A stretch of DNA of 64,000 nt from Schmidtea polychroa (lineage: Eukaryota): contig CM097885.1 of the NCBI GenBank assembly GCA_044892525.1, forward strand, positions 9,054,001-9,118,000, read 5' to 3'. Shown piece by piece: positions 31,702 through 32,027 of this stretch; within the stretch, counting starts at the first letter, position 1, and every line of letters begins with the position of its first letter. A model generated the notes under the pieces. The model ran no database searches. It saw only the letters and a program-made list of their open reading frames with translations, and was not told where the DNA came from. Position numbers and translations under genes: made by a program.

Positions 31702-31785
31702 GACCTTGATGGCGCAGTGGGCTAGACTCACACAGTGGTTCAAAATGCTAGCGGTTCAAATCACATCTGAGGTTAGTTTTTTTTT
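31702..31785 (+). ncRNA. Putative RNA polymerase III small RNA 1 (tRNA-derived/VA-RNA-like)
   Basis: A-box TGGCGCAGTGG (31710-31720), B-box-like GGTTCAAATC (31753-31762), T9 terminator (31777-31785), terminal stem GACCTTGATG/CATCTGAGGTT, inner stem GCTAG/CTAGC. Confidence 0.65.
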
Positions 31786-31950
31786 CAACATAAAATAATA
31801 TTAAAAATTTGAAAATAATATTGAAAATAGTGTGGGTATCTTATATTTATAAAGTACTTGTATATTTTATTTTATTTATTTTATTTTATTTTATTTTTTT
31901 ATTAATTAATTATTTTTAAAACATAAATATGGAAAAAAAAATATTGAAAC

Positions 31951-32027
31951 GGGTGTGGTGGCGAACCGGTAATTATCCCCACCAGTCTTTCGAACACACC
32001 CGGATCGATCCCTTTCTCAGTTGTTTT
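31951..32027 (+). ncRNA. Putative RNA polymerase III small RNA 2
   Basis: A-box-like TGGCGAACCGG (31959-31969), B-box-like GGATCGATCCC (32002-32012), stem CGGGTGTG/CACACCCG, TTTT at 32024-32027. Confidence 0.45.

Follow-up and report, generated by a model that had tools for sequence, protein, structure and literature searches.

The window analyzed here is a stretch of 64,000 nucleotides from Schmidtea polychroa, and it contains a Polinton (Maverick) of the adintovirus type at 18446-32471. The element was recognized from Pfam matches, from its ends, and from target duplications at sister ends. Its genes encode pPolB (in three ORFs), an adenain-like protease, a pX-like protein, an A32 ATPase, an integrase with a PLA2-like domain, and a double-jelly-roll capsid protein. 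Matches to PF03175, PF00665, PF04665 and PF21738 were above the Pfam cut-offs, and PF00770 scored 20.5 bits, slightly below its cut-off of 21.3. Polintons are marked by long terminal inverted repeats (TIRs), AGT...ACT ends, and a 6-bp target-site duplication. We found AGTAGT...ACTACT ends with a perfect 6-bp duplication in four of five pairs of sister ends that face each other; no end motif was obtained for the fifth pair. The flanks of the window copy itself had no matching target duplication. The same gene set is that of adintovirus-type Polintons in excerpts of PMC8502044.

The window copy is inserted into the pPolB gene of another family, and the two halves of that gene flank it at 17905-18501 and 32406-33844. 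Elsewhere in the window are two large, near-perfect inverted repeats: one at 38857-51894, with a 935-codon pPolB-type ORF in each arm, and one at 55608-64000, with TRAF/MATH ORFs. A pPolB fold-back like the first lies inside another element, at L175/L176. Positions 4100-11000 are satellite DNA, whose 30-31-bp monomers make up a 775-bp higher-order repeat.

The element family is very large and young. A search of the 781-Mb AT-rich genome with the capsid gave 2798 first-look candidates, and the 150 that were scored were all ~100% identical. With a 351-bp query, the 40 matches scored out of 1970 candidates were all full length, with 94-100% identity, and many matches formed inverted pairs 13-14 kb apart. 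In one subfamily (L043, L044, L050, L056 and similar loci), the inner module is shared and the outer TIR differs beyond ~32333. At L175:111-2475, a protease/minor-capsid region 73-78% identical to that of the window is joined to ends of the window family, possibly representing a recombinant subfamily.

The right TIR of the family (31679-32471, ~790 bp) contains the entire module described below. The same stretch was also present at the left ends of 11 of 29 and 13 of 30 sister loci in two samples. The left end of the window copy (18446-18810) consists of outer TIR only, without the module, and because its inner part is missing, the extent of the family TIR was hidden from the first reading of this DNA. 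That preliminary description had placed two small-RNA units in a gene-free gap before the right TIR. They are inside the TIR, and the gap contains a 73-codon ORF on the + strand (31461-31682, in the ORF list), between the capsid gene and the TIR, that is also open in a sister copy (L127). At both ends, the units are oriented toward the outside of the element, with the capsid and polymerase genes behind them.

tRNA-like units in the terminal repeat

Unit 1 (31702-31785, + strand) has the full type-2 Pol III layout, with an A box near +9, a B box and an oligo-T end. The A box, TGGCGCAGTGG, is at 31710-31720 and starts at nucleotide 9 of the unit, a B-like box, GGTTCAAATC, follows 43 nt later at 31753-31762, and a run of nine Ts is at 31777-31785, all as first described. 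There is a second B-like box at 31737-31745 that was absent from that description. Over the 14-kb element, there is a single A..B..T pattern. Resampling of the local composition gave at least one such pattern in 2 of 300 sequences with a relaxed definition and in 0 of 1000 with a strict one, indicating that the arrangement is beyond chance.

We analyzed conservation in 68 loci anchored on a 20-mer of the downstream domain (the first 30 matches and 38 from the next ones, mostly picked without the exact unit-1 pattern). In the 60 loci that covered unit 1, a second allele was present in at least three copies at 2 of 29 box sites versus 18 of 46 other sites (Fisher p = 0.003, with box limits set by the analyst). 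The recurrent change in the A box is G/A, at a position where the generic pattern permits it, and all 57 extracted copies end in T-runs of T5 to T15. The cassette, its place in the TIR, and this selective conservation are direct observations on the family.

Across subfamilies, unit 1 retains its boxes and T-run, and its fold is not conserved. A 10-pair terminal stem seen in the window copy was complete in 11 of 60 copies and had seven or fewer pairs in 32 of 60. Compared to shuffled sequences, unit 1 folds with z = +0.63, and four sister units gave values from -0.33 to +0.49. In addition, internal segments of the units expand and contract among copies. The B-box segment is present once, twice or three times, giving two to three B-like boxes per unit 1, and at some ends the whole unit is tandemly doubled. 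Alignment of sister copies bore out the A and B boxes of the preliminary description and not the unit-1 stem, and covariation was thin (one of 73 pairs, in the downstream domain).

Judged from sequence, the pattern in unit 1 is the one predicted for a TFIIIC-binding, Pol III-type DNA element, and not for a VA-type duplex RNA. It is a good fit to the main rival of the reading that we prefer, namely that the module acts as DNA: the A and B boxes at both ends would be TFIIIC boundaries or loop anchors, and any RNA would be a by-product. The duplication of B boxes and of the entire unit 1 in sister copies, and the symmetrical arrangement in both TIRs, directed away from the genes, are consistent with such a role. 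There is a precedent in the B-box inverted repeats IR-L and IR-R of the fission-yeast mating-type region, which bind TFIIIC without Pol III (excerpts of PMC7474672) and resemble the Polinton ends in being inverted repeats with several B boxes that flank a 14-20-kb domain. In contrast to IR-L and IR-R, the Polinton ends have retained A boxes and T-runs in addition to B boxes, as well as the predicted fold downstream. A boundary would leave unexplained both the strand-biased, pair-keeping fold predicted for 32030-32294 and the kept T-runs. We regard this explanation as rather unlikely, and it may hold alongside an RNA.

Unit 2 (31951-32027, + strand) resembles a decayed tRNA-Asp(GUC) and is the predicted internal promoter of a longer RNA. 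It has an A-like box at 31959-31969 and a B-like box, GGATCGATCC, 43 nt later at 32002-32011. Its T-run is only T4 (32024-32027), kept in most copies. Unit 2 matches neither the relaxed nor the strict A..B..T pattern, and the generic pattern, which fits the A box of unit 1, does not fit its deviant A box, in agreement with its earlier designation as the weaker unit. The spacing of its boxes was as reported. The paired stems that had been taken as a sign of structure in both units did not stand up in this sense: unit 2 folds at the level of shuffled sequences (z = +0.46), as does unit 1, although an 8-bp stem in its D-arm region is kept in most copies. A GGGU/ACCC pair, which in VA RNA belongs to the central domain, forms the outer stem of unit 2; such a 4-mer pair is not diagnostic for VA RNA. 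The acceptor and anticodon stems are unpaired, a T stem of 4-5 bp is present in some copies only, and 17 nt after the B box are missing in 5 of 31 aligned copies, including that in the window. The unpaired stems and the 17-nt loss make tRNA-type processing of unit 2 doubtful.

We compared unit 2 to three types of host tRNA. Unit 2 of a sister copy (L104) aligned to a host tRNA-Asp gene without gaps, with 34 of 55 positions identical (z 4.5), over the A box, D arm, anticodon and B box. The window copy gave z 3.8, and control alignments gave z 0.0 (Lys) and 1.0 (Arg). The host tRNA-Asp array was located with a short motif. On the strength of these alignments, unit 2 is a decayed tRNA-Asp. Host tRNA genes are in long tandem arrays with periods of 424 bp (Lys), 278 bp (Arg) and 398 bp (Asp), at C4:76.66 Mb, C140/C333/C474 and C1:157.9 Mb, and the tRNA-Asp motif has 1706 matches in the genome.

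Neither unit is a canonical tRNA gene, in line with the preliminary description, which had already said this of unit 1. ARAGORN detected no tRNA genes in the window, and neither unit matched Rfam, including RF00005; we rejected a canonical tRNA gene on this basis. Relaxed ARAGORN settings produced 712 calls, which we judged to be junk and disregarded. A likeness to vault RNA was also rejected, given that there was no Rfam match and the stem is not kept.

Copy number and origin of the module

The unit-1 pattern has 2854 matches in the genome, compared to none for the backward control, and the 20-mer of the downstream domain has 2620. All of the loci that we examined for context were Polinton ends (37/37, 30/30 and 38/38, or 105/105); these were drawn from the ~2600-2900 matches, mostly from the start of C1. 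A second set of 42 loci, including that in the window, was chosen by the capsid protein, independently of the module. In these loci, which reach 1.5 kb, unit-1 motifs were present in 38 loci, unit-2 motifs in 37, one of the two hairpins described below in 39 and the other in 37.

With its decayed tRNA head, its A and B boxes and its thousands of copies, the cassette resembles a tRNA-derived SINE. It differs from a SINE in moving only within the Polinton end: there was no free-standing copy among the 105 loci, and we rejected this origin. The three sequence findings that the preliminary description had named as contrary to its proposal were not obtained: the units are not a host SINE, they are present in sister copies, and their boxes are conserved. 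Sister copies and alignments show that the units are fixed in the element and tRNA-derived, with a type-2 Pol III layout, as proposed.

Some sister copies carry additional tRNA-like units. In 13 of the 42 capsid-anchored loci, the interval that separates the capsid gene from the small ORF is ~500 bp longer and has two more such units, one scoring 32.4 bits on RF00005. This insert is ~94% identical to sub-repeats of the rDNA spacer; of the 10 spacers with sufficient length, 9 had these sub-repeats. Pairwise alignments of unit 1 with the rDNA-spacer-type units had the boxes and the 3' end in common. Because unit 1 can be aligned to the tRNA-like units of the insert, the element has gathered several different tRNA-derived units at one place. 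An rDNA-spacer origin of units 1 and 2 and the folded domain was rejected: comparison of window positions 31400-32480 to eight rDNA loci gave only three AT-rich matches of 32-34 nt.

The rDNA intergenic spacer (L134:3237-4219, C218) includes sub-repeats of ~243 bp in tandem. Their tRNA-like Pol III units score 32-36 bits as Rfam tRNA, and some of the Polinton ends (L127:346-841) have the same sub-repeats at ~94% identity. Another A/B-like unit is in the spacer at L134:3050, and the spacer at L133 is without 2.7 kb that includes the tRNA-like sub-repeats.

It could be argued that the module is neutral debris, host tRNA pseudogenes that are alike only through recent amplification and homogenization of the TIRs. 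The family is young and huge, the left end of the window copy is without the module, and the insert with a further tRNA-like unit is present in only a minority of loci, all as might be expected of debris. Both the boxes (p = 0.003) and the base pairs (see below) have been selectively spared from change, which argues against it. This explanation is already weakened, and we consider it very improbable.

We found no homologous module outside the Polinton family of the window in viral contigs, metagenome loci or a TBP-carrying Polinton family. The viral contigs contained no distant relatives of the module. Metagenome data gave 27 loci that encode a related capsid (71 kb in total, most loci being short and lacking element ends); these had no match to the TIR and no A/B unit except one weak match inside a capsid gene. 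The TBP-carrying family (60 kb, two places) had no DNA match to the element and no A/B unit, and we found no link to an element-coded TBP in those 60 kb. Searches of the genome with two diverged capsids recovered only the family of the window, or nothing at threshold. Related elements exist in other species, with capsids (P0002 and P0003) that are 73-74% identical.

A predicted folded domain downstream of unit 2

The sequence that follows unit 2 is predicted to fold as RNA. On the + strand, a three-helix domain (32030-32209) would be closed by a 10-bp long-range stem (32030-32039 with 32200-32209). Within it are predicted hairpins at 32040-32057 and 32071-32136, and a 60-nt, ~25-bp hairpin of pre-miRNA size at 32138-32197. 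Beyond the domain is a terminal hairpin of ~20 bp, whose A-rich loop varies in length. Runs of T4, T5 and T6 come after it and would be the Pol III end (32237-32315 for the hairpin and T-runs together). There is no T-run of four or more between 32028 and 32290. The candidate for a conserved structured RNA in this model is 32030-32294, which is downstream of the segment described initially.

Folding energies were well below those of shuffled sequences. Positions 31947-32298 gave -121.5 kcal/mol (z -8.8). The domain (32028-32212) had z -5.4 on the + strand and -2.95 on the - strand, and the 60-nt hairpin folds on the + strand only (z -5.3 versus 0.0). Control folds in the outer TIR gave z -1.96 and +1.60. 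The terminal hairpin (z -7.9) folds on both strands, and the domain was also strong when folded as DNA (z -4.3). Rfam gave no family for the domain, with mir-15 and similar weak matches far below the cut-off, and complementarity of the hairpin arms to the genes of the element was no greater than that of shuffled sequences.

Variation among the copies is largely consistent with the predicted pairing. Eleven recurrent alleles lie at confidently paired sites in 66 of the 68 loci, and 10 of them leave the pair intact (binomial p = 0.016 against a transitions-only null), although the copies are related and ~90% alike, so that these alleles represent few independent events. All 11 are transitions, compared to 3 of 10 recurrent alleles at other sites, a count that comes partly from the poorly aligning A-rich linker. 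Of the one-sided flips, 7 of 8 are of G-U type on the + strand (p = 0.035), a test biased by the prediction of the structure from the same sequences, on that strand and with G-U pairs allowed. Six one-sided, pair-keeping changes are in the 60-nt hairpin. Over 31 aligned copies, 99.6% of the paired cells are paired. A two-sided change was found in only 1 of 73 pairs, an A-U/G-C change at 32249/32280 in the terminal hairpin, and 401 of 500 shuffles equaled that measure. There were also exceptions: a recurrent allele at 32046 (29 copies) breaks a predicted pair, and two of the five copies with a change at 32128 have an A-C mismatch.

The folded domain could instead be a cis-element independent of the Pol III units. 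It might be a single-stranded DNA structure used for packaging or for protein-primed replication, or it might be the 3' part of an RNA made by Pol II, such as that of the 73-codon ORF. Its location in the TIR, the fold as DNA, the T4 that separates it from unit 2, and the folding of the terminal hairpin on both strands are all compatible with this. The many pairs and flips of G-U type on one strand are not what it would predict; moreover, the ORF is present at the right end only and the domain at both ends, and the domain ends in T-runs. We think that a cis-element of this kind is unlikely.

A candidate Pol III cassette

We favor, with about even confidence, a reading in which each TIR carries a tRNA-derived cassette, with unit 2 as the internal Pol III promoter for a folded, outward RNA of ~345 nt, and unit 1 mainly as a landing site for TFIIIC and Pol III. 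The transcription and function of the cassette, which we infer from the sequence and the predicted fold, would be as follows. TFIIIC would bind the A and B boxes of both units, and Pol III would start near 31951. Some of the polymerase would stop at the T4 at 32024-32027, giving an RNA of ~75 nt, and the remainder would read through to the T4, T5 and T6 at 32291-32315, giving the ~345-nt RNA. The host tRNA genes that we retrieved terminate in T5-T8, so a lone T4 may leak. Counting against read-through, T4 is a full terminator in VA RNA (excerpts of PMC7589676).

The long RNA would present two duplexes of the size of Dicer substrates (32138-32197 and 32237-32294). It could be processed into small RNAs, or it could sequester RNA-silencing proteins of the host as a decoy; this role is the least supported step of the scheme. 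Any RNA from unit 1 would be short and unstructured. The additional B boxes and the tandem copies of this unit would raise the occupancy of Pol III factors at the ends of the element, which would help the downstream unit and perhaps shield the inward-pointing promoters of the capsid and polymerase genes. In a planarian, Polintons have been reported as targets of piRNAs and PIWI (excerpts of PMC8532177).

In the preliminary description, the two 75-85-nt units themselves were proposed to be separate structured RNAs, decoys of the VA/EBER type. The boxes, spacing and T9 of unit 1, the T4 after unit 2, and the 8-bp stem that most copies of unit 2 keep would suit such RNAs. The folding and conservation analyses did not support this proposal: both units, and the four sister units, fold at shuffle level, the unit-1 stem is incomplete in most copies, and internal segments vary in size. 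We now consider it very unlikely.

Adenoviruses and Polintons belong to related lineages, and the VA RNAs of adenoviruses inhibit PKR and are cut by Dicer. VA RNAs have a terminal stem, a central domain and an apical stem, with the boxes inside stems (excerpts of PMC7589676). The cassette is like VA RNAI and VA RNAII in having intragenic A and B boxes, a T-run at the end, a proposed tRNA origin, and two neighboring units. It differs in that the units are short and without the conserved VA fold, the folded part is 3' of the boxes, and there is no match in sequence or in Rfam.

The arrangement is also that of the TMERs (tRNA-miRNA-encoded RNAs) of murine gammaherpesvirus 68 (MHV68). In these, a promoter part resembling a tRNA is joined to stem-loops, and transcription can alternatively stop after the first part (excerpts of PMC4337559). 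Like a TMER as described there, the cassette has a tRNA-like 5' Pol III promoter part, downstream stem-loops, a weak internal stop and a location near the genome end, here by sequence and predicted fold. In contrast to the TMERs, its cloverleaf is lost, its 3' part is longer and includes a predicted three-helix domain, and it is in both TIRs of an integrating Polinton. The tRNA shape for cutting by RNase Z is absent, as there is no acceptor or anticodon stem. TMER hairpins give rise to mature miRNAs; the hairpins of the cassette are predicted from sequence.

tRNA genes have been reported in polinton-like viruses (excerpts of PMC12220804) and in MELD viruses (excerpts of PMC8502044), and the units described here are likewise tRNA-type genes inside Polinton-class elements. 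Those of polinton-like viruses, virophages and MELD viruses are detectable as tRNAs and are read, in these excerpts, as a supply for codons. In contrast, the units here fail ARAGORN and Rfam, and keep only the promoter and terminator signals. The excerpts of PMC8502044 have no mention of VA RNA or polymerase III, and the titles and abstracts that we searched describe neither a regulatory RNA made by Pol III nor a cassette of B boxes in the TIR of a Polinton.

Polintons are so far described by their proteins. If the cassette is transcribed, it would amount to a non-coding Polinton gene that can be named and tested and is present at high copy number. It would also provide a way to ask how Polintons escape small-RNA silencing, and whether adenovirus-type, tRNA-derived Pol III RNAs arose repeatedly. 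If it is a TFIIIC boundary only, it would be a case of a transposon carrying its own insulators at both ends. More tentatively, and with less than even confidence, we suggest that this animal Polinton may have its own Pol III regulatory RNA in both TIRs, tRNA-headed and ~345 nt long, with hairpins that yield small RNAs or act as a sink for the silencing machinery, and that this RNA aided the rise of the element to thousands of copies. Such an RNA, if real, would be a counterpart of VA RNA and the TMERs in the lineage that links transposons to adenoviruses.
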